A stretch of DNA of 64,000 nucleotides from an uncultured Bacteroidales bacterium (GCA_900316305.1 ONCM01000003.1:4762-68761), one strand, 5' to 3'. Shown: positions 2,337 through 51,074, counted from the first letter of the stretch. Translations and numbers: made by a program. Notes: generated from the sequence alone by a model not told the origin.

Positions 2337-2459
2337 AGGTTATTAAGGTTTTTATTTGAAATTTCAAAAACGGCGCAAAGATACGTTTTTTTCAGACAAA
2401 TTTACAGAACGGTATAATAAGTTTTTTATTGTAAAAAAGTGTACTTTTGCCGCCGCAAA

Positions 2460-2615
2460 GTGGTGAAGGATTTTCTTCGTAAAATCCTGAGAGGGAAACA
2501 GGTGTAAGTCCTGTACAGTACCCGCTGCTGTAAGTTTCAAGCCAAGAAACCGCACGTTGCCACTGTCGGAAGACGGGAAGGCGCGGTTTCAGAAACGAGT
2601 CAGAAAACCTGCCAC
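2460..2615 (+). promoter_or_regulatory. Cobalamin riboswitch 1
   Basis: Conserved elements AGGGAA-CAGGTG, AGTCCTG, CCCGCTGCTGTAA, GCCACTG..GGGAAGG and the B12 box GAGTCAGAAAACCTGCC. Preceded by promoter -7 TACTTTTG at 2442-2449. Confidence 0.95.
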
Positions 2616-2713
2616 GGCGCATTGTTATCGCTTCGGGAGGTAGGCGGATACAAAAGAGACCCTAATCGCGCTCTTCATTCCAACATTAACCGAAGCATTT
2701 TGTCAAACCCTAA

Positions 2714-3811
2714 ATGCCGAGGATTATGCATTTATGTAACTTATTAAAAAAGAGTGTCTTATGGCTTCTTATTCTGCCAATTTTGGTCATTTCTTGCGTA
2801 CCAAAACCGCCGCTACCTGATCCTGAGCCCATCCCTGATACATACGCGAACGGACTTTTCATTCTCAATGAAGGTCTTTTCCAACAGAATAACAGTACGT
2901 TATCATACTATAATTATAAGGATGGAACATTCACTGCGAATATCTTTTTGGATGTCAATCATCGTGGTTTGGGCGATGTGGGCAACGATTTGCAGCGATA
3001 TGGCAGCAAACTCTACATCGTGGTCAACAACTCCAATATCGTGGAGGTGGTGGATGCAAAAACTGTCCAATCGTTGAAAACCATCAATTTGAACGGCAAA
3101 CAGCCGCGCTATATCACCTTTTTGGACAATAAAGCCTATATTTCCTGCTTCGATGGCGATGTGGTGCGCATCGACACAGCTGCTTTAGAGGTGGAAGCCA
3201 CCGTGCACACCGGTCCGAACCCCGACGGCATCTGCACCTGCAATGGCAAGATTTACGTCTCTAACTCCGGCGGCCTCAGTGCCCCGAACTACGGCAACAC
3301 CGTTTCGGTAATCGATCCCGCCTCATTCACCGTCACCAAGGACATCACAGTGGCAATCAATCCCACCCGTATCAAATCTTACAACAACCGCTACGTCTAT
3401 GTGGTCTCCAATGGCGATTACGGCACCGTGCCTTATACCTTCCAAAAGATTGATTGTCAGACTGATGAGGTGGTAAAAACATACAATCTCGAAGTCCTGA
3501 ACTTTGAAATCCACCAAAACCTCGCCTACATCTACACTTACAATTTCAACACCATGACTTCCGCATGGATCAGCGTGTTGGATTTGGAAACGGACGAAAT
3601 CGTGAAGGAGCAGTTCATCAGCGACGGCACGCAGCTGAAGACCCCTTACGGCATCAAAGTGAACCCATTGAACGGCGATGTCTATATCACCGATGCGGGC
3701 ACCTTCACCACCAATGGCGACATCTACTGCTTCGACAAAAACGGCAAGAAGAAATTCTCGTTTGAAGGCGGTTTGAATCCGTCGGCAATGGTGATTGACT
3801 TCGGCGAATAG
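2714..3811 (+). CDS. btuG: BtuG-like (YncE/DUF5074) beta-propeller surface lipoprotein, likely B12-binding
   Basis: Lipobox LVISC, motifs FILNEG..NNSTLSYY, LGDVGND and KLYIVVNNS, and a position directly downstream of a cobalamin riboswitch. The start may be 2726. Confidence 0.85.
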   Translation: MPRIMHLCNLLKKSVLWLLILPILVISCVPKPPLPDPEPIPDTYANGLFILNEGLFQQNNSTLSYYNYKDGTFTANIFLDVNHRGLGDVGNDLQRYGSKLYIVVNNSNIVEVVDAKTVQSLKTINLNGKQPRYITFLDNKAYISCFDGDVVRIDTAALEVEATVHTGPNPDGICTCNGKIYVSNSGGLSAPNYGNTVSVIDPASFTVTKDITVAINPTRIKSYNNRYVYVVSNGDYGTVPYTFQKIDCQTDEVVKTYNLEVLNFEIHQNLAYIYTYNFNTMTSAWISVLDLETDEIVKEQFISDGTQLKTPYGIKVNPLNGDVYITDAGTFTTNGDIYCFDKNGKKKFSFEGGLNPSAMVIDFGE

Positions 3812-17478: not shown

Positions 17479-18078
17479 TCACCCTATCACAGCACCATGT
17501 ACAATCGCCAGAATGTTGTTGGAGAAGAGTTTGATGGCCATCGCCAGAAGGATAACCCCAAAGAACTTCCGCAGCACATAGATGACATCGGCGCCCAACC
17601 ATCGGCTGATTTTATCGAGATAGCGCAGCACGATGTAGTCGATGACGATGTTGATGGCCAAGCCGATCATGATGTTCACGGTGGCGTATTCCGCATGGAG
17701 CGAGATGAAGGCGGTGATGGCTCCGGGTCCGGCAATGAGCGGGAAGGCGATGGGAACGATGCTGGCACCCGACGAGGTGGGCTCGTTTTTGATGATGTCG
17801 CGCCCTAAGATCATTTCGAAGGCTAGAATGAAAAGCACGATAGAACCCGCAACGGCGAACGACGGCATGTCAATGCCGAAGAGTTTGAGCAACGCATCGC
17901 CCAGAAAATAGAATCCGACGAACAGGATAAGGGCGGCGGCAGTGGCTTCCAAGGGTTTGATTTTCGTCCCCTTGTCGCGCATGGAGACAAAAATGGGGAT
18001 GGAACCGGTGATGTCGATAATGGCGAACATCACGAGGAACGTGCTGAATATCTCTACGAAGTTGATTTGTGCGAACAT
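17479..18078 (-). CDS. MarC family membrane protein
   Basis: Motifs F.IID..G.IP, VPIAFPLIAGPGAIT and FGVILLA.AI. Confidence 0.92.
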   Translation of the reverse strand: MFAQINFVEIFSTFLVMFAIIDITGSIPIFVSMRDKGTKIKPLEATAAALILFVGFYFLGDALLKLFGIDMPSFAVAGSIVLFILAFEMILGRDIIKNEPTSSGASIVPIAFPLIAGPGAITAFISLHAEYATVNIMIGLAINIVIDYIVLRYLDKISRWLGADVIYVLRKFFGVILLAMAIKLFSNNILAIVHGAVIG

Positions 18079-18140
18079 GATGATTGTCTTTTGCAATTGC
18101 GGCGGCAAAAGTACAAAAAAAGTGTATTTTTGCAGCCGCA

Positions 18141-18274
18141 AAATGGTGAAGGGAAACAGGTGCGAATCCTGTACAGTACCCGCTGCTGTAAGTTCCGCGA
18201 AAGGAGCCGCAAAATGTCACTGTCGAAAGATGGGAAGACGCCGCTTCAGGAACAAGTCAGAAAACCTGCCATTT
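18141..18274 (+). promoter_or_regulatory. Cobalamin riboswitch 2 (P2 stem absent)
   Basis: GGGAAACAGGTGCGAATCCTG, CCCGCTGCTGTAA, TCACTG..GGGAAG and AAGTCAGAAAACCTGCC. Promoter TATTTTTG at 18125-18132. Confidence 0.93.
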
Positions 18275-18419
18275 ATGCGTTGTTAATCGCTTCGGGAGGT
18301 AGGCGGATACAAAAGAGACCTTAATCACACTCTTTGTTTCTATTATTAACCGAAGCATTTTGTCAAACTTAAATGCTAAGGATTACACGTATTTGGTATT
18401 TTTAATAAACAAAACAATT

Positions 18420-19697
18420 ATGAAGAAATTATTACTCTTTTTCGGTTTATTTTGCATGATAAACCTGACTTTTGCCCAACAGACGGTGATTCTGAATGGA
18501 CATGGAAATCATGATGGTGCAGTCCGCGATGGCGATGATCCCGTTGACGCATCCCTCCCCTTTAGCGACATCCTTTTCTGGGTGGGCAGCGGTTCCGACA
18601 GCGCTGAGTTCATCGTCAACTTTGCGCAACCTGACACCGCATTCGCATGGGGCTTCCTCTTCAACGGCAGCACCACCGCACAAGAGATGGTCAATGCCAT
18701 CGCAGCCGCCGACCCCCGTTTCTGGTCCGAAGGCTCTCCCTCCTCTGGCGGTGACCTCCACTTCGTCCTCTCCAACGGCGACACCCTGGGACTTTCCCCC
18801 GTTGATCCGACTATGGGTTACAACTTCTGGTGGACCAACCTCAACGGTGTTAGCGCAGGTGCCGGTGCAGCTAGCACACTCCATAACGGAGACATATTCA
18901 AATACGGTGACATGAATTCCGCCATCGGCTGGGATTTCCAGTATGGTTATTACATGGAAGAGGCATGGGTCAAGACTCCCACTGCTGTCGCGCCTCCTAC
19001 AGATCCTCTTCCCGATGAGGCCACTATCGCCTTCAGCGAAATCCTCTACTGGGTGGGTGAAGGTTCCAACGAGGCCGTCATGGCCGTCAACTGGGCTGAC
19101 ACTGCTTTGGCATGGGGCTACCGCTGGAACGGCACTGCCACCGTCGCTGACATGATAGCTGACATCGCCGCCGCCGACCCGCGCTTCAGCTACGAACTGG
19201 GCAGCTGGGGTCTCGACGACATCATCTTCGCTGTTGCCGAAGGCGACACCCTCCGCAAAGTTCCCTACAGTTATTGGGAAAGCAAGAACAATGGCTATAC
19301 GGATATGGGTATGGGTCAGACCCTCGCCAACGGTGACTTCGAGAAGTGGGCCGAACCCGCCGCCGGCATCATCGCCGATAGCATGGAATACGATGGTTAC
19401 TGGTACTACACCTACGTCTATCCGATGACCATCAATCCCGTCTCTGTGCCCGAGACAGGCTCAGGCATCGACAATCACGAGATATCCCGCATGTACGCGT
19501 ATCCGAACCCGTGCACGAACACGCTCTACATCACCAACGAGAACGCCGAGCGCATCGAACTGTACAATGCTAACGGCAAACTGTTGGAGGCTGTCGAGAA
19601 CCACGACACGCAAGTGACTCTGAATATGCAACAGTATCCTGCTGGCCTCTATCTGCTGAAAGTCGGCAATGACGTGCAGAAAATCTTGAAGAAATAA
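18420..19697 (+). CDS. T9SS-secreted protein with two transcobalamin/DUF4430-like domains (putative cobamide-binding protein A)
   Basis: Signal peptide, two I.[FY]WVG.GS..A....N[FW] domains and a T9SS type A CTD (YPNP...YNANG...G.YLLKV...KILKK). Riboswitch-controlled. Confidence 0.85.
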   Translation: MKKLLLFFGLFCMINLTFAQQTVILNGHGNHDGAVRDGDDPVDASLPFSDILFWVGSGSDSAEFIVNFAQPDTAFAWGFLFNGSTTAQEMVNAIAAADPRFWSEGSPSSGGDLHFVLSNGDTLGLSPVDPTMGYNFWWTNLNGVSAGAGAASTLHNGDIFKYGDMNSAIGWDFQYGYYMEEAWVKTPTAVAPPTDPLPDEATIAFSEILYWVGEGSNEAVMAVNWADTALAWGYRWNGTATVADMIADIAAADPRFSYELGSWGLDDIIFAVAEGDTLRKVPYSYWESKNNGYTDMGMGQTLANGDFEKWAEPAAGIIADSMEYDGYWYYTYVYPMTINPVSVPETGSGIDNHEISRMYAYPNPCTNTLYITNENAERIELYNANGKLLEAVENHDTQVTLNMQQYPAGLYLLKVGNDVQKILKK

Positions 19698-19720
19698 CCC
19701 TTTTATATTAATGAGTAGCC
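19011..19720 (+). repeat. ~710-bp direct repeat, copy 1 (last domain, CTD and start of the 3' UTR)
   Basis: Near-identical to 25056-25769 in both DNA and protein. Confidence 0.92.
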
Positions 19721-19735
19721 TATCGGCTGAAATGG

Positions 19736-19766
19736 AAACGGCCCCGCGTTTGCGAGGCCGTTTTTT
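19736..19766. terminator. Intrinsic terminator, probably bidirectional
   Basis: AAACGGCCCCGC gttt GCGAGGCCGTTTTTT between convergent genes. Confidence 0.8.
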
Positions 19767-20062
19767 CATTCTTTCTTTTTCCCTTGACCCAATTCCCGGC
19801 GGTTTCGCCCGATATACAAAAAATAGAGCATCAAGTCGATGGCCACCAACGTACCGTTAAAGATGTAGAGCCAGATGACAATGTCGTGGTTATACAACAC
19901 CTTGTGGATGATGCCGAAGATGTACCCTAATACGATCAGGGACATGAAAAGAGGGCTTTTGCCAATCACCACCTTGGTGCGCAAGGATTTGGCAATGGAA
20001 ATCGGCCAGCTGACCGTGAAACAAAGCAGGAAGAGAACTTCCCATATACTAAAATCTGTCAT
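19766..20062 (-). CDS. Small 3-TM PQ-loop/SemiSWEET-like membrane protein
   Basis: 98 aa, CF..SWP.SI.KS.RTK...GKS..F family pattern. Start taken at MTDFS. Confidence 0.7.
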   Translation of the reverse strand: MTDFSIWEVLFLLCFTVSWPISIAKSLRTKVVIGKSPLFMSLIVLGYIFGIIHKVLYNHDIVIWLYIFNGTLVAIDLMLYFLYIGRNRRELGQGKKKE

Positions 20063-20148
20063 AATTTTGATTATTAACAACTTATAAAACATTCGGATTC
20101 CCCCGAATGGGACTGCAAAAATACAAAAAAAAGTGTATTTTTGCCGCC

Positions 20149-20321
20149 GGTTTGGTCGCCCTGACGAAGGGCGCCAAGAGGGAAGCCGGTGCGAGTCCGG
20201 CGCAGTCCCGCTGCTGTAAGCTCCAACGAACTGAAAGCCCAATTTTAACGTCACTGTGTGCTGCCATAAGTACATGGGAAGACAGGGCCGACGGGGAGCA
20301 AGCCAGAATACCTGCCAAACC
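20149..20321 (+). promoter_or_regulatory. Cobalamin riboswitch 3
   Basis: AGAGGGAAGCCGGTGCGAGTCCGG, CCCGCTGCTGTAA, TCACTG..GGGAAG and AAGCCAGAATACCTGCC. P1 is GGTTTGGT/GCCAAACC. Confidence 0.95.
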
Positions 20322-20486
20322 CTGAGAAATCGGTAACGCTTTCGAGGAAAAGCACCCCGAACAAGGACCCGTCAGGTATTCATTACCTCCCCTTTTGTGT
20401 GGTTCGAAGGTTCGCACGCGCCTGTTTCCCAAAAGTTTTTGCCGATATTGGACAGAAATGGTCAAACATTTTTAAACAATATCATT

Positions 20487-23400
20487 ATGGTAAAAAAACT
20501 ACTTGTATTCATCATGGCTCTGGGGCTTGCATTAAACGCCTCAGCCCAATTGACAACCATCGACCCGAATGATGTCCAATTCTGGACCGGCACCGGCAGC
20601 AACAGCACGGTCGTCGCCATCGGTTGGGACGATGATTCAGCTCCTTACACGCCCACCGTGGTGATCTGGGGCGTGCGCTGGGAAGGCAGTATCTACCTTG
20701 TCAACGCATTGGACACCATCGCCGCCTACGACAGTCGCTTTTCCTACGTGATGGGCGGCAGTGGATTCCTGACATCGCTCTATTACAACGACCCGGACGA
20801 AGGCCTTGTGCTGACCCCTTCGGGAGGATTTAACTGCAACAATTACGGCGGAGCTTATGGCTCAACTACACTCAATAGCACGCACTTGCGGATTACCGAA
20901 TCCACATGCAGCAACTACAACTTTGCCGGTGTGACCAACATTGTCTATGCTGTCGACCCCAACGCCGTAACCTCCTGTCCCAAGGCGCAAAGCGTTAGCA
21001 TTTCAGATCTTACCGCCTATAGCGCCACGGTAAACATCACCGACACCACCAATTTGAATAACTATACAGTAATGCTTTTTGAAGGCGACTCGCTGATTGA
21101 CAGCGTCGTCATCTACACCCAGACCATCTCCTACTCTACCCTTACCGCCAACACCGGCTACACGGTGAAGGTCTTCTCCAACTGCTCCGACGGCACGCAG
21201 ACCACAGCCCGCAGCGCCAGCTTCCGCACTCCGTGCGTAGAAGTGGCTCACACCGAACTTCCGTGGACGGAAGATTTTCAGTCTTACAATGGCCTGTCTT
21301 ATGCGTCCGCGTCGGTCTCCTTCGCCAGCCAAGTATTCTGCTGGGATCTGATTAACCCCTACAGCACCTCCGATCCCTATATCAACAACTCTTCCTCGGT
21401 CAATGTGAGCGGCGGCAAATGCCTCTACGTGAGCAGCCGTCCCACAAGTCCGACCATTCTGGTGCTGCCGCCGTTTGAGGACACCCCCAACCAGTTGCGC
21501 CTCCAATTCGACGTGCTCTCCACCTACGGACACGGCTTCGAAGCGGGTGTCATCACCGATGTGACGGATGAAACCTCCTTCACCCCCATCGCTACCTGTC
21601 TGCCAACCAACAGCGGTTGGAACCACTTTGAGGTTTCCTTCGCTGGCTTCACCTCCGGCAGAATCGCCCTCCGTTCCAACGACAACGGTCCCGCCTATCT
21701 CGACAATATGATGGTGGATGAAGTACCTTCCTGCGTGAAACCTTCTCAGGTGATTGTCTCTAACATTGATGTCTATTCAGCTGACATCACGATCACCGAT
21801 CCCAATAATACTAATCATTATATGGTATATGCCGCCGAAGATAGCGTAGAAATCTATAGTGACAGCTACACTCTCACCAACCTGCAGCCCAACACGCTCT
21901 ATGTGGTGGGTGTGCGCACCATCTGCAGCGACAACACCATTACAAACGCTACCGAAACCTCCTTCCGCACCGGCTGTGGCCCGATTGCCATCCCCTATCA
22001 TGAGGATTTCAGCCAGTTTGCGGATTTGTCCAACGGCTACGGCTACGCAGTGACCGACAGCACCCTACCCTGCTGGGGCTTCTTCAAATCACGTGCGCTC
22101 GACCGTCTGGAGCTCTTCCCCTACACGTCCACTTACGGCTATGGCGAGGATGGCTACACCTTGCGCATCTATTCCAACAATTCCAACTCTATTGATATTC
22201 TGATGCTTCCCGAACTTGCTCAAGCAACCAATACGTTGGAAATCAGCTTTATGACCCGTCCTTCCGAAACCGGCTCTTTTGGCGGTATTTTGGAAGTGGG
22301 CTATATGACCGATCCCACCGACACAGCCAGTTTTGTCGCGGTGACCAGCTATAGCTGTGGCCAGTTCACCAACGGCTACGACCTGCGTGCCGTCACCTTG
22401 AGCAATGCACCCGCCAATGCCCGCATCGCGATACGCACAATCCCCACTGGCGGTTCCGCCAAATCTTGGTACATCGATGACCTCGACGTTCACGACATGC
22501 CCGCCTGCGCCCGCGCCAACGGCATCAGCGTGGATAATATCACCACCGACGGCTTCACTCTTCACGTGGACGACCCCACCTTGGTGAACAACTATCGTTA
22601 CTATATCAGCTCAGAAAATAGCGTTGATAGCGCCGACTTCTACGACACAGTGGTTATCGTCAACGGTTTGGCCGCTTCTACGGACTTCGAACTCACTGTA
22701 GTCTCTATCTGTCCCGATGGTACTTTCACTTTGCCTCACACCATTTCGGTCAGCACCCTCTGTGCGCCCGTGCCCGATGTTCCCTTCGTGGAAAACTTCG
22801 AAAGCTGGACGGCCACTCAGTCGGAGGGCATGAACCGTTGCTGGAACCGTCTGTACTGTAACTCATCCAGCAGCTTGGTTACCAACAACTATCCTTATTG
22901 TGCCAGTGGTAGTGGCAATGCCTACAACGGCTTCAAGTCACTCAAGATGTACTCCAAAGGAACTACCAGTGCCATCAAAGAATACTCCGTGGCTTATCTG
23001 CCTGAGTTTACGGCTAATATGAACACCCTGAAAGTAAGTTTCTTCTACAAATATGGTGGCAGCACCACCAATATGAACAAGGTGCGTATCGCTGTTGGTA
23101 TCAGCGAAGACGTGACCGACACCACCACTTTCACCCGTTTGGCCACCCTCACCCCGACCGTCATCGGTTGGAACGAGTTTGAGGTGGAATTCAGCGGCTA
23201 CACCGGCAACGGCAACCGCATCACCATCATGCAGACCAGCACCGGCACCACCGCCATCACCAGCTACATCGACAGCGTGGTGGTGGACACCGTCAGCAGC
23301 TGCAACCGTCCTACCACTTTTGAAGTGTCCAACATCTCCGCTTACGGCGCTACCCTTACCTGGACCGATCCCGGCACGGCAGACTCCTACATCGTGCGCT

Positions 23401-25745
23401 GGACCGACGGCACTACGACCGACAGCGTCATCGTCACCAACGACACCCTCTACGAACTCAGTAGTCTGTTGCCCAGCACCACCTATTCTGTGGATATCCG
23501 CAGTATCTGTTGGGGCGAACCCACCAATGCCCGCACGCTGACCTTCGCCACTTCCTGTGCTCCCATGCCGCTGCCGTGGAGCATGGACTTCGAAAACATC
23601 ACGAATATTAACCAACTCTCTTCCTGCTGGAACAGATATAGCGGTATTTATGTTGACTCTACCAACAGTGCTACGCTGACCTCCACTTCCAGCGGTTGGG
23701 CACGTTCCAACACTGCTTTTGACGGATCGTCACATGTGAAAGTCAACATCTATGGAACTTCATGCAAGTATTGGTTAGTGACTCCTGAAATTGATCTCAC
23801 TGCGAATGCCGAGCTGACCTTCGACTATATGTTCACCGCTTACAACAATGCCAACGCTCCTCAAACAGGATCCGGCCTTGATGATGACCGTTTCATCGTG
23901 CTCGCCACCACCGACAACGGCACCAGCTGGACTCCTATTGCCAAGTGGGGTAACGACACCGTCAACCGCGATGATTACTACCTTGCCGATGTTACCAACA
24001 CCGTATCCAATATCACCCTCTCTTTGGCTGATTTCACCGGACAAGTTGTTCGACTGGCCTTCTACGGCGAAAGTACTGTCGGCGGCACCGACAACGATTT
24101 CCGCATCGACAATATCGTAGTGGCATTGGCAGCCGACACTACCTCCACTCCCGACACTATCCCCACGCCTCCTCCTACCCCTGAAGATGCCACCATCTCC
24201 GCTAATGACATTATCTACTGGATTGGCAGTGGTGACGAAAGCGCCATCTTCGTACTCAACATTGACACTACTTCAGTGGCTTGGGGTTATCACTTTGATG
24301 CGGATGATGAACCCACGATTGACGATATGATCGCCGACATTGATGCCGCTGACCCGCGTTTGGCCTACACTGTCAGCTATGAAACATACGAATACACTTT
24401 CTATTATGTCAATCACCCGCTCAAACTCATCGGCGACAACTTCCGTTTCAAAGTGAATGGCTCGTTGGCTTCCGCCCTTGAAGAGTTTGAAGACTATGAC
24501 CTTGCCGACAGCATGATCGTTGTGGTCAGCACGTTGGCAGGTGATGTCTGGAACACGCCTATTGTTCCTGCAACCGTGGCTACCATGCCGGTAGATGCTA
24601 CCATCTCCGCTGAGGAAATCCTCTATTGGGTCGGTGAAGGCAGCAACGAGGCCGTCATCGCTATCAACTGGGGCGTTCCCGACACTGCACTGGCTTGGGG
24701 TTTGCGTTTCAACGGCAATCTGACCGTGACCACCGCTTTGCAGGCGCTCGTTGCCGGTGAAAGCCGTCTCACGACCAACACCGCCATGTCCACCTTCGAC
24801 TACAATGATGGGACGGTCAACCTCAGCTTCCAGAATAATCCTAACAACTTCATGCAGTTCATCCTCAACGGCAACTCACAGGCTGGTCTGTCCAGTCCGG
24901 TGACCGACGGTGCTTTCCTCAAGGTAGGTGAATCCGCTTACGGTATCGGTTACGACTCCACCGCATACGCCGGTATGTGGTATCCGTCGGGCGTGGCATG
25001 GCCGACCACCATTCATCCTGTTACAGCTCCCGACACCACACCTATAATCCCCGTCCCCGAAGAGGCCACTATCGCTTTCAGCGAAATCCTCTACTGGGTG
25101 GGTGAAGGTTCCAACGAGGCCGTCATGGCTGTCAACTGGGCCGACACTGCTTTGGCTTGGGGTTACCGCTGGAACGGCACTGCCACTGTCGCCGACATGA
25201 TGGCCGATATCGCCGCCGCCGACCCGCGCTTCAGCTACGAACTGGGCAGCTGGGGTCTCGACGACATCCTCTTCATTGTTGCCGAAGGCGACACCCTCCG
25301 CAAGGTTCCCTACAGCTATTGGGAAAGCAAGAACAATGGCTATATGGATATGGGTATGGATCAGACCCTCGCTAACGGTGACTTCGAGAAATGGGCCGAA
25401 CCCGCTGCCGGCGTTATTGTCGATAGCATGGAATACGAGGGTTACTGGTACTACACCTACGTCTATCCGATGACCATCAATCCTGTTTCTGTGCCCGACA
25501 CCATCCACGACGGCATCGATGACCACGAGATGTCCCGCGTGTACGCCTACCCGAACCCGTGCACGAACACGCTTTACATCACCAACGAGAACGCCGAGCG
25601 CATCGAACTGTACAATGCTAACGGCAAACTGCTGGAGGCCATCGAAAACCGCGACACGCAAGTGACTCTGAATATGCAACAGTATCCTGCTGGCCTCTAT
25701 CTGCTGAAAGTCGGCAACGGCGTGCAGAAGATTCTGAAGAAATAA
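20487..25745 (+). CDS. 1752-aa T9SS surface protein: transcobalamin-like domain, 4x (FN3 + jelly-roll/cleaved-adhesin-like), 3 transcobalamin-like domains, CTD (putative cobamide-binding protein B)
   Basis: Signal peptide. Four FN3-like units bounded by C..P and F.T.C, each followed by a P[WYF].E[DN]F...ID[DN] module. Four I.[FY]W.G.G domains. T9SS CTD. Confidence 0.88.
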   Translation: MVKKLLVFIMALGLALNASAQLTTIDPNDVQFWTGTGSNSTVVAIGWDDDSAPYTPTVVIWGVRWEGSIYLVNALDTIAAYDSRFSYVMGGSGFLTSLYYNDPDEGLVLTPSGGFNCNNYGGAYGSTTLNSTHLRITESTCSNYNFAGVTNIVYAVDPNAVTSCPKAQSVSISDLTAYSATVNITDTTNLNNYTVMLFEGDSLIDSVVIYTQTISYSTLTANTGYTVKVFSNCSDGTQTTARSASFRTPCVEVAHTELPWTEDFQSYNGLSYASASVSFASQVFCWDLINPYSTSDPYINNSSSVNVSGGKCLYVSSRPTSPTILVLPPFEDTPNQLRLQFDVLSTYGHGFEAGVITDVTDETSFTPIATCLPTNSGWNHFEVSFAGFTSGRIALRSNDNGPAYLDNMMVDEVPSCVKPSQVIVSNIDVYSADITITDPNNTNHYMVYAAEDSVEIYSDSYTLTNLQPNTLYVVGVRTICSDNTITNATETSFRTGCGPIAIPYHEDFSQFADLSNGYGYAVTDSTLPCWGFFKSRALDRLELFPYTSTYGYGEDGYTLRIYSNNSNSIDILMLPELAQATNTLEISFMTRPSETGSFGGILEVGYMTDPTDTASFVAVTSYSCGQFTNGYDLRAVTLSNAPANARIAIRTIPTGGSAKSWYIDDLDVHDMPACARANGISVDNITTDGFTLHVDDPTLVNNYRYYISSENSVDSADFYDTVVIVNGLAASTDFELTVVSICPDGTFTLPHTISVSTLCAPVPDVPFVENFESWTATQSEGMNRCWNRLYCNSSSSLVTNNYPYCASGSGNAYNGFKSLKMYSKGTTSAIKEYSVAYLPEFTANMNTLKVSFFYKYGGSTTNMNKVRIAVGISEDVTDTTTFTRLATLTPTVIGWNEFEVEFSGYTGNGNRITIMQTSTGTTAITSYIDSVVVDTVSSCNRPTTFEVSNISAYGATLTWTDPGTADSYIVRWTDGTTTDSVIVTNDTLYELSSLLPSTTYSVDIRSICWGEPTNARTLTFATSCAPMPLPWSMDFENITNINQLSSCWNRYSGIYVDSTNSATLTSTSSGWARSNTAFDGSSHVKVNIYGTSCKYWLVTPEIDLTANAELTFDYMFTAYNNANAPQTGSGLDDDRFIVLATTDNGTSWTPIAKWGNDTVNRDDYYLADVTNTVSNITLSLADFTGQVVRLAFYGESTVGGTDNDFRIDNIVVALAADTTSTPDTIPTPPPTPEDATISANDIIYWIGSGDESAIFVLNIDTTSVAWGYHFDADDEPTIDDMIADIDAADPRLAYTVSYETYEYTFYYVNHPLKLIGDNFRFKVNGSLASALEEFEDYDLADSMIVVVSTLAGDVWNTPIVPATVATMPVDATISAEEILYWVGEGSNEAVIAINWGVPDTALAWGLRFNGNLTVTTALQALVAGESRLTTNTAMSTFDYNDGTVNLSFQNNPNNFMQFILNGNSQAGLSSPVTDGAFLKVGESAYGIGYDSTAYAGMWYPSGVAWPTTIHPVTAPDTTPIIPVPEEATIAFSEILYWVGEGSNEAVMAVNWADTALAWGYRWNGTATVADMMADIAAADPRFSYELGSWGLDDILFIVAEGDTLRKVPYSYWESKNNGYMDMGMDQTLANGDFEKWAEPAAGVIVDSMEYEGYWYYTYVYPMTINPVSVPDTIHDGIDDHEMSRVYAYPNPCTNTLYITNENAERIELYNANGKLLEAIENRDTQVTLNMQQYPAGLYLLKVGNGVQKILKK

Positions 25746-25769
25746 CCCCTTTTATATTAATGAGTTGCC
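25056..25769 (+). repeat. ~710-bp direct repeat, copy 2
   Basis: Matches 19011-19720. Confidence 0.92.
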
Positions 25770-25800
25770 GGTCTTTGGGATGATGTAACCGGTTAAAGAA

Positions 25801-25833
25801 GGAAACGGCTCCGCAATGTCGGGGCTGTTTCCT
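25801..25833 (+). terminator. Intrinsic terminator
   Basis: GGAAACGGCTCCG caatgt CGGGGCTGTTTCC hairpin after protein B, related to those at 19736 and 27027. Confidence 0.7.
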
Positions 25834-25896
25834 GTTTGAAAACTATCAAATACAAAATTACGCGTCACTATAATCCTAATATAACCGAAAAAATCC

Positions 25897-25962
25897 TATT
25901 TTTGCCACTACAAAGTGGTGTGGATATGCATTTATGATATTTTTTAACAAACAAAATAAATT
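25897..25962 (+). promoter_or_regulatory. -7 promoter and short leader homologous to the riboswitch leaders but lacking the aptamer
   Basis: TATTTTTG, then CAAAGTGGTG and GGATATGCATTTATG, which match the two ends of the riboswitch-1 leader (2456-2465 and 2721-2736). Confidence 0.7.
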
Positions 25963-27021
25963 ATGAAGAAATTATTACTCTTTTTCGGTTTATTCTGCAT
26001 GATAAACCTGATTTTTGCCCAAGAGATGGATCATCTAATTGGCCATGATTCCGTTGTCACTACTTATCCTGATTCCATCTTGAATACGATTTTGGATTCC
26101 GAACCTGGTCCTTTCTGCGGCCCTGTCGGCTCTGAAGGCTGCAACGCCATCGCCGCCAATGACAACCAAATTGTGGCTTGGGCTACTGGAGTGGAACTTA
26201 CCCGTGGACCGTATATGATCACCAACCCGGAAGGTCCGTATGCCTACTTCGGCGGTGACACCAACGCCATCGGACCGGCTACCATGGACAACACCATGGA
26301 TGCCGTCAGTCTCGGCGACGGCGGTTCCGCGCTGGTCACCTTCGACCGTCCCATCAGTAACGGCGAAGGTCCTGACTTTGCCGTATTCGAGAACTCCTTC
26401 AACGACACCTTCCTCGAACTGGCCTTTGTGGAGGTAAGCTCCGACGGCGTGCATTTCGTGCGCTTCCCAGCCACCTCACTCACCCCGACCGACGAGCAGG
26501 TGAGCGGTGCTGTAGGCGGCGTGGATGCCACCAACCTCAACAACCTGGCCGGCAAGTTCCGCATCGGCTACGGCACCCCGTTTGATCTCGAAGAGCTGCG
26601 CGACAGTGCCAACCTCAACATTGACAGCATCGTCTATGTGCGTATCATCGATGTGGTGGGCACCATCGACCCGCAGTACGCCACCTACGACGCTTTCGGA
26701 CACATCGTCAACGACCCTTGGCCGACCAACTTCTGGAGCTGCGGCTACGACCTCACTGGCGTGGGCGTCATTCACCAAAAGACCGTCGGCATTGGCAACC
26801 ACGAAATGGCTCGCGTGTATGCCTATCCGAACCCCTGCAATAGCACGCTCTACATCATCAACGAGAACGCCGAACGCATCGAACTCTACAACACCAATGG
26901 CCAACTACTTGAAACAATAAATAACGGCGACACACAAGTGACTCTCAACATGCAACAATATCCCTCTGGTCTTTATCTGCTGAAAGTCGGCAACGGCGTA
27001 CAGAAGATTCTGAAGAAATAA
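25963..27021 (+). CDS. T9SS-secreted protein with a BtuH-like domain (putative cobamide-binding protein C)
   Basis: VSLGDGG....TFD.PI.NG.GPDFAVFEN.F..ELAFVEVS.DG and FDL..VRI.D..G.DL.GV pattern. Signal peptide almost identical to protein A. T9SS CTD. Confidence 0.75.
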   Translation: MKKLLLFFGLFCMINLIFAQEMDHLIGHDSVVTTYPDSILNTILDSEPGPFCGPVGSEGCNAIAANDNQIVAWATGVELTRGPYMITNPEGPYAYFGGDTNAIGPATMDNTMDAVSLGDGGSALVTFDRPISNGEGPDFAVFENSFNDTFLELAFVEVSSDGVHFVRFPATSLTPTDEQVSGAVGGVDATNLNNLAGKFRIGYGTPFDLEELRDSANLNIDSIVYVRIIDVVGTIDPQYATYDAFGHIVNDPWPTNFWSCGYDLTGVGVIHQKTVGIGNHEMARVYAYPNPCNSTLYIINENAERIELYNTNGQLLETINNGDTQVTLNMQQYPSGLYLLKVGNGVQKILKK

Positions 27022-27026
27022 ATAGG

Positions 27027-27059
27027 AAACGGCCCCGCAATCGCGAGGCCGTTTTTTTT
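27027..27059 (+). terminator. Intrinsic terminator
   Basis: AAACGGCCCCGC aatc GCGAGGCCGTTTTTTTT. Confidence 0.85.
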
Positions 27060-27284
27060 ATCAATGTGTCGGTTCCTATTCCCACCCCCGCGTGCGGAAC
27101 GCACGCCATCTTAGTAACCCCACATCAGGCGCCAGCCGCAGTGTGGGGTAGGCGTATGCAGCGCAACAAAAAATTTTGCGCACCGTATTATTTTTTGTAT
27201 CTTTGCACCGTCAACTCGAGGACATGTTTTGTCGCAAGATTGGCGGATTTTTATTGAATAAAACGAAGCGTTATGCTCGTCTTG

Positions 27285-27951: not shown

Positions 27952-29106
27952 ATGACGCACAAACGATATTTTCTCTGCATTTTCTTGATGTTGAATGCGG
28001 CTGCCATCTTTGCGCAAACGCCCATTCAAGTTGCTGATTTGTCTTTTAAGTTGAATGGCAACACAGCAGAAGAGTTCTATTACAGTTTCGCTGAAGGGGA
28101 CATAATGGTTGTGGATTTTGAACTCGCCAAGGGGAAGGGAGTGCAATTTGAAATTGTGGAACTACCTAACCAGATTAAAACAAGCCAGTTCACAGCGAAA
28201 ATGACCGATTATCGACTAAATGTTTTCTCTACAAAGGTCTATTTGTTCAGGATAACCAACGGATTGGGCAACAAAATGTGTTCTCTTCACATTAAACGTA
28301 TTCCCAAATCGCAAGAAACACTGAAATTCAATACGGGATGGGAATGGAAAACACTTTATGACACTACATATAATCACTATTCGGAAGATTCTCTTGTCGG
28401 ACATGATACGGTACATTACATGGAGACAATAAAAGAAGTGGACTCAAGAGAGGTGTCAGAAGAAATGTTGTTCGATCGTAAAGAGGAAATACCTTCTATT
28501 GCCAAAATGTTTTTGGACGAAAATCCTCGTAAATGCATTACATTCCATTTACCTCAAAACATAGAAAATACCTATTTGAGGAAGACTGTGATTGGTTGGG
28601 GCTTTTGGATATGTGTGGGAGATCATTCAAGCAGTTGGTGGAGCAAAAATAAAAATTTAATGATTAAAGGGGCTTCTACTATTGCGGGAACAACAATGAG
28701 CCCTTTGGGTGCTTTCGTCGCAGGAGAAATTACAAATTTACTAATTCCAGACAAAGGCGCAGTGGATAATGTTATATGGGCTGTTATTTCTAATTGGAAC
28801 GACAGAAATGCATTTGTAAATGGAGAACGTGCATATTGTATGCAAACTGGAAATGGTCCAGGTGCATGGGGAAAATTTTTAGATGCAAAGGATACCCAAG
28901 GTACATATCACATCTGTTTACGAAATGACAATACTATAGGAAAAATAAGGGTGAACGTGAAAGTATCTGTTCTTGTGGAAACCATTACCTATAAAGATGT
29001 AGATTATCCTCGGACACGGATAGTTCCTCAATATGTAAAAGTACCAAAAGTCCGCAGGAATATTACCTCCCGTCAGATCAGAGTTCCAGTGAATGAAGGT
29101 AGATAA
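27952..29106 (+). CDS. Secreted hypothetical protein
   Basis: 384 aa with a signal peptide (AAAIFAQ). Its end is 13 bp from the start of the C10 protease gene. Confidence 0.75.
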   Translation: MTHKRYFLCIFLMLNAAAIFAQTPIQVADLSFKLNGNTAEEFYYSFAEGDIMVVDFELAKGKGVQFEIVELPNQIKTSQFTAKMTDYRLNVFSTKVYLFRITNGLGNKMCSLHIKRIPKSQETLKFNTGWEWKTLYDTTYNHYSEDSLVGHDTVHYMETIKEVDSREVSEEMLFDRKEEIPSIAKMFLDENPRKCITFHLPQNIENTYLRKTVIGWGFWICVGDHSSSWWSKNKNLMIKGASTIAGTTMSPLGAFVAGEITNLLIPDKGAVDNVIWAVISNWNDRNAFVNGERAYCMQTGNGPGAWGKFLDAKDTQGTYHICLRNDNTIGKIRVNVKVSVLVETITYKDVDYPRTRIVPQYVKVPKVRRNITSRQIRVPVNEGR

Positions 29107-29119
29107 TAATACAATCATC

Positions 29120-32100
29120 ATGAAAAAGATCACGTTATTGTTAGCATTGATTATGTGCGTCAATATGGTCTTCTCTAATCCTGTTGACACAATTACGGCA
29201 AAACGAGTAGCCATCAATTTCTGGAAACAGAACAATGCAGGGCCAACTGTAAATGGTAAAACTTTGCGTTTCCAACGAGAGGTCCCGGATTTTCGTCTTC
29301 TGCCTGATACCCTTTTCTCGGGTTTTTACATCTTTAATGCTGTAAATGGAAAAGGATTTGTCATTGTTTCGGCTAATGATAATGCAATCCCCATATTAGG
29401 ATATTCAATGGAAAACTCTTTCCAAATTGAAAATATGCCTCCTAATCTTAAATTTTGGTTGGAAGGCTACGAACAAGAAATCCAAAATGCAGATTATGTC
29501 AGATGCTCTAATGAAATACGTAGTGATTGGGGAATGTTGTTAGCTGGCGAGCCTTTGCCTGTAAAAAGTACTACCAATGTTACTCCTCTATTAACTACAC
29601 ATTGGGACCAGGGTTGGCCGTATAATTTATCTTGTCCATACGATTATGATGCTGAAGATAATACCATGACAGGATGTGTGGCAACAGCCATGGCACAGGT
29701 GCTGAAATATTGGGAATATCCTCAAATTGGAACAGGTTCTCATACTTACATAGACCCCAATTACGGCATGCAGAGCGTGGATTTTGAGACAGGAATTGCT
29801 TGGAATGAGATGTTGAATGACTATTCTACATCTACTTCATATACTCTCATGCAAGCAAGTGCTATTTCATCATTGATGTATATGTGCGGAGTAAGTGTGG
29901 ATATGAATTATGGTATTTATGCTAGTGGAATATCAAATTTTATTAACGAATACGGATTACTACCGTTACCTTGTCCTGAAACGGCGTTAAAAACATATTT
30001 TAACTATAGTGACAATCTTGAGGGAATATCTAAATCTGATTTCACATCTGCTCAATGGATAAGTATATTAAAAAATGAGTTGGATTCAGACAGAGTGATT
30101 CTCTATACAGGACATGACGCGAACAACACAAGTGCACATGCTTTTGTTTGTGATGGCTATTCTAATAATAATAATTTTCATTTTAATTGGGGATGGAGTG
30201 GTTATTGTGACGGATATTACTCTATTAACAATCTTGCTCCTGGATCTGGAGGATCAGGTAGTGGTAACGGTAATTATACTTATGGTCAACAAGCTATCAT
30301 TCACATTACACCATCCAATCAGGTAGTTCATCCTAATTACGATCTTGTGATGAATAGCACGTTGACCACATCTGACACTAGTTATTTGTTTGGCCCCAAT
30401 CATCCAATTTCGATTAATTGTGCAGTAGCAAACACAGGCAATGCGACTTTTAATGGGTATCTTGTTGCATTAGTGTCGGATTTAAACGGAAATATTGTAG
30501 CTGAAATCACATCTTCCTATACCACAATCTCTCCAAATCATTATGTGAATAAAAGCTTTACGGTTCAAGGAGGGTTGCCTTTAGGGCCTGGAAGATATTT
30601 TGCTATTATCACTTCTGCAACAAATCTTAATGATCCTGCTACATCGCGAATCATCAGAGATAATTTGTCCAATATCAATTTTGCTCAGTTCAAGGTGACC
30701 TATGAAGCGGACATTGAAACCTTTTCTGAGTTTGAGCTGTCGGAATACATGATATATACAGGACAATCGCTTTCAGTAAACGTGGATATTGCAAATTTCG
30801 GTTCCGATTTTTCTGGTGATTTTTCTGTTGCGTTACTCTCTATGACTGGTTCGTATGTTCAAACTATTCAACAACATACTCTTACAATTCCTCTTGAGAG
30901 TATGACACATTATACTAACGGAATCGACTTTACGGGTACTATTACTGCTTCTGCCGGTGATTACTTTCTGACATTACGGTATAGACCGCAGGGTTCTTCC
31001 AATTGGTATTATGCGGGCAGTTATTTTTATCAGAATCCAGTCAGAATTACTGTTTACGCTCAGCCCGTGGCGGATATGTATGAAGCGAATAATACGGCTG
31101 CAACCGCATATACTTTATCTCCTGTTTTTACAGATAACATGGCCAACGTAAATACCAATGGAGCAAACATCCATTCTATCACCGATGTTGATTATTATAA
31201 AATTATCCTTCCTTCTGGATATTCTTATGATATAGTTCCAATCCTGCAAGACGTGTATTATAATGATGACATATCCTATTCAGTCGATGCAAAGTTTTAT
31301 TTTTCTGTCAACAATACGACATCTTGGCAAGGACCGTTTGATTACGATGCTAATATTCTAACATATATAGCTAATTATTGTGGGACTACGATGAGTGACG
31401 GAGGAACTATATATTTTAAAGTGTTACCCACATCCCAAGGAGACATAGGTACTTATTCACTGCATGTTGTATTGAATCGTTCAATTAGCCCTGACCAGTA
31501 CGAGCCAAACAGTACAGCATCAACAGCTTACAATCTTGGCACTGTCAACTCCAGTAGTGTAAATTACAATGTGAACGCCAACTTCCATATCACCACTGAT
31601 GCAGATTACTACAAGATTAACCTTCCGTCAGGTTATTCCTATACCATAAACGCAAATATACTTAACAGTTACAATAACACCTCCTATACAGCAGATGCAA
31701 AATTCGCGACATCCCAAGATGGTAGCACTTGGTCTTCCAACTATGGGAATGCCATGTCAGCAATGACAATGAGTGATGGTGGAACACTTTATTTTCGGGT
31801 TTTACCTTATACTGACCATGAAATAGGAACATATCAATTGCAAATTTCCATCACTCGGACAGGCGGTGTTGAACCTGACCAATACGAGCCGAACAATACA
31901 GTCAACACTTCCTATTTACTGGCTACAATAGACGAACCGACATCTTCCATTGTTGCCAATGCGTCGTTCCATACCACATCGGATGAAGATTACTACAAAA
32001 TTGATTTCCCGGCAGATTATAATTACACTATTGAAGTTGTGATGTTCGACTGCACAAATGACCCTAACTGTTCTGTGGATGCGAAAATCGCAGTCTCTGA

Positions 32101-39894: not shown

Positions 39895-39966
39895 TACTGC
39901 GTACGAGAATCGAACTCGTATTGCAAGATTGAGAATCTTGATTCCTAACCGTTAGAAGAACGCAGC
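39895..39966 (-). tRNA. tRNA-Glu(CTC)
   Basis: Acceptor GCTGCGT/ACGCAGT, anticodon arm CAAGA-TTCTCAA-TCTTG, T-loop GTTCGATTC and a downstream terminator at about 39855-39885. Confidence 0.95.
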
Positions 39967-44578: not shown

Positions 44579-44650
44579 GGTCCTGTAGTTCAATGGATAG
44601 AACGGAAGTTTCCTAAACTTTTGATAGGAGTTCGATTCTCCTCGGGACTA
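44579..44650 (+). tRNA. tRNA-Arg(CCT)
   Basis: Acceptor GGTCCTG/CGGGACT, anticodon loop TTCCTAA and T-loop GTTCGATTC. Confidence 0.95.
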
Positions 44651-49979: not shown

Positions 49980-51074
49980 ATGAAGCGGAGTCTCATTATA
50001 GGAATCTTATTGTTTACAGTCGGCGGGATGTCCTCAATGGCACAAACCGGCGGTAAATACATATATAACTTCCTGAACCTCAGTTATTCTTCAAGACTGA
50101 TGGGATTGGGAGGCAATCTGATTTCCGTTCACGATGACGACCCGACGCTGATGCTGACCAACCCGTCATACGTCAGCGACCGCCACCATAATCAGCTGGC
50201 ATTGAACTTCACCGACTACTTCACCACCAGCAACGCCATGTCCGCAGTCTATTCGCACACCTTCAACAAGGCGGGCAGTTTTTCGGCTGGTGTATGCGCC
50301 CTCACCTACGGCTCATTCCGGGGAGCGGACGAAAACGGCATTGAAACCGGCAAGTTCACCGCCGGCGACTACGCCCTTTTCATTGGCTGGGGCCGCGAAC
50401 TCTCCAACCATTTCGCCGTTGGCGCGAACCTCAAAACCATCTTCAGCCATTACGATGCCTATTATTCCGCCGGACTGGCCGTGGATGTCGCCGGCAGCTA
50501 TTTTGACACCGCTAGCAATCTGTCTCTCACATTGTTGTTTAAGAATATTGGCGGCCCAGTGAAATCTTACGCTCCAGGCAATTTCGAAAATCTGCCTTTT
50601 GACATCCAATTCGCGCTGTCACAACGGCTGAAACACGTCCCCATCCGCTACCACATCTCCCTCCACTCCCTCTACCGCTGGAACATGAACTATTACGGCC
50701 AAGACAATCCTTTCATCAGCACCGATGCCATCACCGGCGAACCGCAATACCCCTCCAAGATAGCGCAATTTGCGGACAACTTCTTCCGCCATTTCGTCAT
50801 CGGCTTGGAATTGGAACCCATCAAGTATTTCTCCATACAGGTGGCTTACAATCATAATGTCCACCAGGAAATGCGCGTAATTTCCCGAAAGTCTTTGGCA
50901 GGTTTTTCATACGGTATCCGACTGAACATCAAAGGTATAAGAGTTGGTTTCTCCCGACTCCACTACGCTATCGGCGCTACTCCGAACTGTTTTGATCTCG
51001 CCCTCGACTTTGAGGAATTGGCCAAGAACAGCAAAGAGAAAAAAGCAAAAAAATTAGAACGAATCACCCCTTAA
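49980..51074 (+). CDS. porQ: T9SS component PorQ
   Basis: Y.FL.L..S.R...LGG, NP, YG.F...DE.G, L.H.P......LH.L and GFS.G. Confidence 0.85.
   Translation: MKRSLIIGILLFTVGGMSSMAQTGGKYIYNFLNLSYSSRLMGLGGNLISVHDDDPTLMLTNPSYVSDRHHNQLALNFTDYFTTSNAMSAVYSHTFNKAGSFSAGVCALTYGSFRGADENGIETGKFTAGDYALFIGWGRELSNHFAVGANLKTIFSHYDAYYSAGLAVDVAGSYFDTASNLSLTLLFKNIGGPVKSYAPGNFENLPFDIQFALSQRLKHVPIRYHISLHSLYRWNMNYYGQDNPFISTDAITGEPQYPSKIAQFADNFFRHFVIGLELEPIKYFSIQVAYNHNVHQEMRVISRKSLAGFSYGIRLNIKGIRVGFSRLHYAIGATPNCFDLALDFEELAKNSKEKKAKKLERITP

Follow-up and report, generated by a model that had tools for sequence, protein, structure and literature searches.

Candidate corrinoid-capture proteins with type IX secretion domains, linked to cobalamin riboswitches, in an uncultured Bacteroidales bacterium

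The window analysed here is a stretch of 64,000 nucleotides (G000:C38:4762-68761) from the genome of an uncultured Bacteroidales bacterium, which comprises 3.28 Mb in 99 contigs and is rated 97% complete. It harbors three genes, here called A, B and C, which all lie on the plus strand in the same orientation and whose products end in the C-terminal domain (CTD) of type IX secretion system (T9SS) cargo proteins. In the gut and the rumen, microbes compete for vitamin B12 and this competition shapes their communities; the current models of B12 uptake rest on the lipoproteins of Bacteroides. In Bacteroides thetaiotaomicron the relay formed by BtuJ, BtuH, BtuK and BtuG with BtuB consists of lipoproteins (PMC13616437, PMC12751083). 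Here we present a computational analysis of the three genes, based on sequence searches, structure models and comparative genomics, according to which A, B and C are probably accessory corrinoid-capture proteins of BtuB/BtuG-type B12 uptake that are displayed by the T9SS instead of being lipid-anchored.

Gene A (18420..19697, +) encodes 425 amino acids (aa) with a signal peptide, two copies of a repeat termed WVG, which is predicted to resemble the beta-domain of transcobalamin, and the T9SS CTD, as read from the domain alignment, Pfam family PF18962 and a structure model. The listed open reading frame (ORF) already begins at TTG 18360, but translation from the ATG at 18420 gives MKKLLLFF at the N-terminus, and the database protein P0126 is 425 aa long. 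Gene B (20487..25745, +) starts at ATG 20487, with the ORF listed from GTG 20397, and encodes 1752 aa. According to the domain alignment, Pfam and NCBIfam-type models it consists of a signal peptide, one WVG domain, a stalk of about four units of an FN3-like and a choice-of-anchor J domain, three further WVG domains and the T9SS CTD; the stalk is matched by fn3 with E 1.4e-14 and by choice_anch_J with E 2.2e-26 in four stretches. Gene C (25963..27021, +) encodes 352 aa with a signal peptide, a domain of predicted BtuH-like fold and the T9SS CTD (PF18962, model, Rfam); it has a promoter-like box in front of it but no riboswitch.

A GC-rich terminator hairpin on the plus strand follows each gene. 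The hairpin after A (19698..19775) has a folding energy of -26.1 kcal/mol, which was equalled by none of 200 shuffled sequences, and is followed by a U run; the one after B (25746..25845) reaches -31.9 kcal/mol, again with 0/200 shuffles folding as well, and has a shorter, interrupted U run. After C the hairpin at 27022..27060 is followed by a U run and also appears in the terminator scan; the value of -26.4 kcal/mol, matched by 4/200 shuffles, applies to 27022-27100. The scan of the window for sigma-70 promoters and terminators as a whole delivered counts near the shuffled expectation and is uninformative.

The 3' ends of the three genes are related at the DNA level, with 92% identity between 19464-19704 and 25512-25752 and 77% between the former and 26788-27028. 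The last approximately 395 aa of B are 67% identical to A and much closer to it over the last approximately 230 aa. Over these last approximately 230 codons, comprising the last WVG domain and the CTD, A and B (18996-19704 and 25041-25752) share 92% DNA identity and are diverged in the remainder, which suggests a recent duplication or a gene conversion between paralogues. At 95% identity or more, A, B and C are all covered by contigs assembled from the RNA libraries of three studies; since such libraries may contain DNA, this supports expression only weakly. One of these contigs joins position 25239 back to 19308 and is probably an assembly chimera of the A and B copies. The bin 25625-25925 between B and C has no RNA-library contig depth except 0.15 in one run, a value that says nothing on separate transcripts. 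A preliminary description of this region, made from the sequence alone, had reported three co-oriented genes with a related T9SS CTD and a terminator each, including a 1752-aa protein with an FN3/jelly-roll stalk, and these observations stand.

Cobalamin riboswitches were searched with Infernal and the Rfam model RF00174, which has a gathering threshold of 31.5 bits. Riboswitch 1 (2444..2630, +; 95.8 bits, full length, model positions 1-189) precedes a BtuG-like gene described below, riboswitch 2 (18127..18287, +; 91.3 bits, full length) precedes A with a distance of 132 nt to the ATG, and riboswitch 3 (20136..20333, +; 110.8 bits, full length) precedes B with a distance of 153 nt. In the aptamer of A one hairpin, corresponding to 23 model positions, is replaced by 2 nt. 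Past the aptamer, too, the leaders of btuG (2380-2735) and A (18060-18440) are almost identical, and this extends to the presumed expression platform. The whole genome contains only four RF00174 riboswitches, three of them inside the window. The fourth (G000:C62:43034-43213, -) lies before a 696-aa ORF starting MDQLYIIKRNGKREPF, which by eye resembles a ribonucleotide reductase with an ATP cone; such an enzyme works independently of B12 and would be switched off when B12 is present.

The placement of A and B directly under cobalamin riboswitches in the preliminary description is thus borne out by the covariance model; C had been placed under a relic of the same leader, and this had to be given up. 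Upstream of C (25650-26050) RF00174 finds no match even at E <= 10, and the similarity to the leader of A is limited to 25942-26047 against 18399-18504 (83%), that is, to about 20 nt of 5' untranslated region plus signal-peptide codons. A promoter box of the TAnnTTTG type is located upstream of C and suggests that this gene has its own promoter.

All three CTDs match the T9SS families PF18962 (Por_Secre_tail; E 2.9e-12 for A, 5e-11 for B and 3.7e-12 for C) and TIGR04183 (type A sorting; E 4.9e-11, 2.1e-10 and 6.3e-11, respectively), and the CTD models align with solved T9SS CTDs at Z 9.8-10.4. The search for T9SS machinery covered PorU and PorQ. The PorU sortase is present in the genome (NF033707, 1188 bits), and porQ, a component of the T9SS attachment complex which the preliminary description had already recognized in the window, is located at 49980..51074 on the plus strand (NF033711, 316.4 bits, cut-off 220, at G000:C38:54753-55769). 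Neither A nor C has a proper lipobox, as read from the sequence; the N-terminus of C starts with MKKLLLFFGLFCMINLIFAQE, and the protein ends in the T9SS CTD. In Porphyromonas the PorU/PorQ attachment complex anchors type A cargo.

The type A CTDs together with PorU favour anchoring to the cell surface or to vesicles over free release as a 'cobalophore', so that of the two routes left side by side in the preliminary description the first is retained and the second is disfavoured. Release would mean that A, B and C are soluble corrinoid carriers which leave the cell and are recaptured by BtuG/BtuB. It would agree with the missing lipobox in A and C, with the delivery of T9SS cargo either to the medium or to the surface as described in the abstract of PMC10202324, and with the portrayal of BtuJ-carrying vesicles of B. 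thetaiotaomicron as siderophore-like in the abstract of PMC12751083. The match of the CTDs to the type A model and the occurrence of PorU and PorQ in the genome speak against it, as does the stalk of about 1000 residues in B, which makes more sense in a tethered protein; we regard the soluble carrier as unlikely.

The WVG domain has a length of about 150 aa and an invariant W-x-G-x-G box. Two copies occur in A (18540-19007 and 19011-19457, +) and four in B (20550-20981, 24180-24587, 24588-25052 and 25056-25514, +), as delimited by the domain alignment. A was modelled with AlphaFold2 from a 33-row alignment (mean pLDDT 79), and the model was compared by VIA-align with 48,161 PDB representatives. 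Residues 212-318 match the beta-domain of intrinsic factor (2pmv_A; Z 10.1, rmsd 2.5, 96 residues aligned), transcobalamin (2bb6_A; Z 10.1), haptocorrin (4kkj_A; Z 9.6), the beta-domain of apo transcobalamin (5no0_A; Z 8.5) and a DUF4430 protein (3u7z_B; Z 8.4). Overall, the beta-domain matches of A cover 88-96 residues with rmsd 2.5-2.8, and apart from these only T9SS CTDs, aligned to the C-terminus of A, rank equally high among the structural matches.

Pfam DUF4430 (PF14478) is reached by some relatives with 40-50% whole-length identity, namely P0189 (E 3.5e-21, 4 stretches, 75.9 bits), P0200 (E 1.1e-20, 74.3 bits) and P0113 (E 1.5e-5), and by five of 50 aligned WVG domains with a best E of 2.8e-6. 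Searches of the PDB by phmmer with A and C delivered only spurious repeat-protein matches on the CTD region. Foldseek with the whole model of A returned CTDs and spurious multi-domain matches from the PDB, with the beta-domain chains unlisted. The relation between WVG and the transcobalamin beta-domain is therefore remote, as sequence-only searches of the PDB fail to detect it, and VIA-align without a Foldseek prefilter was needed because Foldseek missed both the beta-domain and the BtuH chains.

In contrast to the carriers of the transcobalamin, intrinsic factor and haptocorrin type, with which they share the fold (Z 9.6-10.1 over 94-96 residues), the WVG domains have no alpha-domain partner, occur in 2-5 tandem copies and possess an extra C-terminal beta-hairpin and the N-terminal WVGxG motif. 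They are bacterial, stand in CTD-bearing proteins and are linked to riboswitches, and the copies in the window lie below Pfam detection.

The model of C, built from a 74-row alignment (pLDDT 85) and compared with 48,161 chains in the same way, has as its top match the B12-binding domain of BtuH2 (7biz_B), which superimposes on residues 71-272 with Z 12.8, rmsd 3.1, 160 aligned residues and 21% identity. The second match is 8blw_B, the BtuH-like part of a BtuB1-bound lipoprotein (Z 11.2), and generic CBM32 jelly rolls follow at Z 9-10. For a comparison at the sequence level, BtuH-family proteins were taken from BtuG loci of other genomes; these six proteins are anchored by L082:195-1406, which matches 8blw_B with E 3e-81 and 7biz_A with E 8e-47. 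An hhalign comparison of 17 C domains with the six BtuH proteins gave E 1.7e-4 over 105 columns with 30% identity. In this alignment the N-x-F stretch is matched, with ENSF in C and GNSF in BtuH, and the C-terminal half lies outside; by motif spacing, the ENSF of C would be equivalent to Asn-399 and Phe-401 of BtuH2. In a local search with the hidden Markov model (HMM) of the C domain, six of the eight matches after one true C protein are BtuH-like lipoproteins, with E-values of 1e-5 to 0.1 that refer to a tiny database.

As judged from the model, C has a BtuH-like fold and, by the measure of HMMER, falls outside the BtuH family; the two are probably remotely homologous. With BtuH (BT1956/BT1488; PDB 7BIZ) C shares the fold of the B12-binding domain, an aligned core motif SLGxGG...N..G.DF....N.F in the hhalign comparison, and relatives that stand in riboswitch operons together with a TonB-dependent receptor and BtuG. 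In contrast to BtuH, C has no lipobox or PKD domains and carries a Sec signal peptide and a T9SS CTD; its relation is beyond the reach of HMMER, and in this genome it is located away from btuB and from a riboswitch. No Pfam family covers the C domain, and a search of the ESM Atlas with it found only unnamed clusters. The family is large, with 1977 clusters at 50% identity for E <= 0.001, 1459 for 1e-10 and 800 for 1e-30. One BtuH-family protein, at L085:200-1393 (+) and aligned together with the L082 protein, is without a lipobox and has a C-terminal extension resembling a T9SS CTD, so that true BtuH proteins may exist in a T9SS form, too.

The linkage to riboswitches was followed in 185,579 species genomes, which were scanned with the alignment of A and contained 256 relatives, the best 80 of which gave 77 loci. 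All of these loci are from uncultured ruminant or gut Bacteroidales and are mutually non-independent. A same-strand cobalamin riboswitch accompanies 67 of the 77 loci; the remaining ten could not be judged, because the gene extends past the end of the locus in nine and sits at the end of a contig in one. The preliminary description had set the position of homologues behind cobalamin riboswitches as a check of its proposal, and this is what the loci display. The direct Rfam scan detected 64 same-strand riboswitches in 62 of the 77 loci (18/20, 15/19, 15/19 and 14/19 in the four batches). Directly before the WVG gene, at 25-230 nt or overlapping the listed ORF start, are 53 of the 64 riboswitches; seven precede a BtuG-like gene with the WVG gene behind it, three have a small overlapping ORF as nearest neighbour and the WVG gene next, and one is situated at the end of its locus. 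For five of the 15 loci without a match in the direct scan the genome was searched as a whole, and in all five (5/5) a riboswitch was found just outside the stretch on the same contig, as verified by sequence overlap. Four of the genomes searched in this way contain only 2-3 cobalamin riboswitches each.

The C domain is part of the same ORF as WVG in 46 loci and is encoded by the next gene in 15, together 60 of the 77 loci, as one locus has both arrangements. An orthologue of the BtuG-like gene of the window stands between the riboswitch and the WVG gene in nine loci, and in L074 the gene order is TonB-dependent receptor, BtuG-like, WVG x3 and C. At L025:6070-6129 (+) a SAM-II riboswitch (59.2 bits) was observed about 1.4 kb 3' of the WVG gene. 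In a local search, WVG-type domains were also observed N-terminal in long ORFs with a BtuG propeller in L083, L086, L089 and L090 (E 3e-14 to 3.5e-21); these ORFs represent a second kind of fusion linking the WVG domain to B12 uptake.

The distribution across the order was surveyed in 151 genomes drawn evenly from the Bacteroidales (148 genus codes). BtuG-like proteins occur in 133 of them; 48 have the C domain, always as a single copy, and 19 have the WVG domain. According to coordinate tables read by hand, at least 12 of the 18 other genomes with WVG have it near or fused to BtuG, and a distance of about 5 kb or less separates the C domain from BtuG in at least 32 of the 47 others. Ten regions were fetched from ten family codes. 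All ten contain, on one strand, a C-domain gene, a receptor-sized gene and a BtuG-like gene, with one or more CTD proteins ahead. The middle gene matches TonB-dependent receptors by phmmer in nine of the ten regions, one of which was confirmed by the Pfam Plug and barrel families; the tenth is a 590-aa ORF assigned by its position only. A CTD is detectable in nine of the ten C proteins. A riboswitch is present at the 5' end of eight regions; the remaining two begin no more than 125 nt from the edge of the fetched sequence.

The gene before C encodes WVG plus CTD in five regions, DUF4465 plus CTD in three and a CTD protein without other Pfam family in one; in the remaining region, L125, DUF4465 is fused behind the C domain. 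DUF4465 is the family of BtuJ, and binding of B12 has been demonstrated experimentally for seven members (10.1101/2025.08.21.671476). As DUF4465 and WVG replace each other before C, the position held by the WVG protein is that of a proven B12 binder. By these predicted domain compositions, T9SS tails on proteins of B12 operons are common outside Bacteroides, and the design is not peculiar to the window and is widespread in the order Bacteroidales. The operons of the relatives with their BtuG-like and TonB-dependent receptor genes make the feeding of BtuG/BtuB the natural reading.

In the genome under study the corresponding genes are dispersed. The BtuG-like gene (2714..3811, +), located 14 kb from A, encodes a beta-propeller lipoprotein of 365 aa, which is the sole match to Pfam DUF5074 (PF16819) in the genome (E 4.1e-18, 66 bits, cut-off 27.2) and has a lipobox ...LVISC, as read from the sequence. 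No TonB-dependent receptor gene stands beside it; the nearest is a generic one at 6743-8878 (-), 3 kb away, which encodes 711 aa with weak plug matches to CirA, heme and B12 receptor models. This receptor was considered as BtuB and left unassigned: it is the best TIGR01779 match of the genome, but in the plug only and with 68 bits against a cut-off of 599.7, and tblastn with the riboswitch-linked L074 receptor does not recover it at E <= 1e-5. That L074 receptor has its best homologue in G000:C54:8750-10834 (30% identity, E 3e-83), which is regarded as the best candidate for BtuB; no BtuG-like gene is located nearby, and none of the four riboswitches of the genome lies on that contig.

The A-B-C cluster and its flanks contain neither btuB nor btuFCD, and FecCD is located on contig C62 of the same genome. 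The preliminary description had likewise found no btuB or btuFCD in the cluster, and had seen the BtuG gene at 2714 as an orphan through which the proteins would feed a receptor encoded elsewhere, a proposal that gains support from the operons of the relatives. DUF4465 (PF14717) was found neither in A, B and C nor in the whole genome at E <= 10. Two genes with a B12-binding domain are present and CbiC and CobS have no match in the 97%-complete genome, which points to a probable dependence on scavenged corrinoids.

In the reading which we consider likely, A, B and C would serve as T9SS-displayed accessories of the BtuB/BtuG system. At low intracellular cobamide the riboswitches before btuG, A and B would permit expression, as expected for this riboswitch class, and C would be made from its own promoter. 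The three proteins would cross the inner membrane by means of the Sec signal peptide and the outer membrane by means of the type A CTD, after which PorU, following the Porphyromonas model, would remove the CTD and link the proteins to the cell surface and hence to vesicles. There the transcobalamin-beta-like tandem repeats in A and B may bind corrinoids, as may the BtuH-like domain in C; three of the four WVG domains of B would be held out on the stalk. The corrinoid would then pass to BtuG, the lipoprotein sitting on a TonB-dependent BtuB whose gene lies elsewhere, and be imported by BtuFCD.

A more far-reaching version, which we put forward tentatively and would not yet call probable, is that T9SS-bearing Bacteroidales own a B12-capture toolkit that follows the logic of BtuJ, BtuH and BtuG with T9SS cargo. 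It would include a bacterial corrinoid-binding module that has so far gone unrecognised and is related to the beta-domain of the mammalian carriers, with each WVG domain binding on its own, and the tandem arrays (2-5 copies, in B on its stalk of about 1000 residues) would form a multivalent capture surface on cells and vesicles that feeds BtuG. These proteins, and not a transporter, would make up most of the B12 riboswitch regulon of this rumen lineage.

Several results weigh against the assignment of A, B and C to corrinoid capture. The six WVG domains of the window are below DUF4430 detection, with no match of A and B at E <= 10 and none of domain 2 of A scanned alone at E <= 0.01, and an HMM search of the PDB with the WVG profile brings up neither transcobalamin nor DUF4430 chains at E <= 10. 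In carriers of the transcobalamin type the beta-domain works together with an alpha-domain, which is absent in A and B. For C, the probability of the hhalign match to BtuH is only 49%, the profile of the 74-protein family recovers only CTD-bearing chains and no BtuH2 from the PDB at E <= 10, and Foldseek with the model ranks only generic beta-sandwich enzymes. In this genome, furthermore, btuB is unlinked to the cluster and C has no riboswitch. Corrinoid binding by the WVG and C domains is a prediction. BtuL and BtuK2, both encoded in B12 operons of B. thetaiotaomicron, do not bind B12 (PMC13616437), so that operon membership is no proof of binding. A complex prediction for the BtuG-like protein (residues 40-365) with the WVG alignment (score 0.00, mark 0.32) delivered no evidence either way.

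BtuL and BtuK2 also provide the precedent for an alternative in which A, B and C are exposed on the surface and regulated by B12 yet bind no corrinoid, and might instead act as adhesins to corrinoid producers or feed particles, or as BtuL-like modulators of vesicle release. The FN3 and choice-of-anchor J middle part of B is typical of adhesins, and the weakness of the sequence matches to known binders also speaks for this explanation. It leaves aside that two unrelated domains both resemble B12 binders by their fold, that WVG takes the DUF4465/BtuJ slot, and that fusions join C to DUF4465 in L125 and WVG to BtuG propellers; altogether we find it rather improbable. A chance neighbourhood, with riboswitches that control something else or with ORFs that are not real genes, has its only foothold in the missing riboswitch of C and is close to refuted by the comparative data, as the pairing is kept in 67 of the 77 loci though such genomes hold only 2-4 of these riboswitches, homologues number in the hundreds to thousands, and RNA-library contigs cover the genes.

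The assignment to T9SS-displayed corrinoid capture, in which binding, anchoring and hand-off are predicted, draws on the riboswitches, the CTDs and T9SS genes, the conserved operon context, and the fold resemblances to the transcobalamin beta-domain/DUF4430 and to BtuH, and it supports the earlier proposal of B12-binding-type proteins exported by the T9SS. Compared with BtuJ (DUF4465), the proteins share the operon slot (DUF4465 plus CTD in 3/10 and WVG plus CTD in 5/10 operons) and the proposed role in the first extracellular capture, which is ascribed to BtuJ in PMC13616437. In contrast to BtuJ, which binds B12 with high affinity as a lipoprotein on cells and vesicles of B. thetaiotaomicron, A, B and C are not lipoproteins, and the folds are unrelated. 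With the BtuG-BtuB pair of gut Bacteroides the genome has in common a riboswitch-controlled DUF5074 lipoprotein, which in relatives is co-operonic with WVG and C genes; it differs in that btuG stands alone without an adjacent btuB and that the candidate receptor lies on another contig without a riboswitch. The system would accordingly differ from the Bacteroides relay in its anchoring, in one module of the transcobalamin-beta-like type and in the scattering of riboswitch-gene units in this genome.

Type IX secretion is not known to figure in the B12 literature on Bacteroides; the T9SS has 0 mentions in the 2026 B12 review PMC13616437, and the literature searched, outside of which were subscription journals and supplementary files, contained no link of the T9SS to B12 capture and no DUF4430 in this role. 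With the C domain in 48 and WVG in 19 of the 151 genomes and 1977 clusters, a large unstudied set of candidate B12 binders emerges in livestock-associated bacteria. Should corrinoids be bound by the WVG domain, bacteria would have their own equivalent of the transcobalamin beta-domain, and a binder that is small and modular. The proposed display would link the T9SS to micronutrient acquisition and points to a second, undescribed way of presenting B12-scavenging proteins.

The cluster is flanked by genes for a MarC-family protein, an ion channel, a 384-aa protein without a family over cut-off and a C10 peptidase. The latter two are located directly 3' of C (27952-32494, +): the 384-aa protein has as its sole match a weak one to EMP24/GOLD (E 1e-4, below cut-off), and the C10-family cysteine peptidase comprises 1133 aa with a Spi inhibitor prodomain and a T9SS CTD. 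Between the terminator of A and the riboswitch of B a 98-aa ORF lies on the minus strand (19766-20062), which has no Pfam or NCBIfam match and whose translation is hydrophobic by eye, like a small membrane protein. A BamG-family protein is encoded at 46815-48095 (-; NF053685, 341.7 bits). Housekeeping genes elsewhere in the window encode CTP synthase, PurM, QueA, PepT and Nfo, together with tRNAs at 39895-39966 and 44579-44650.

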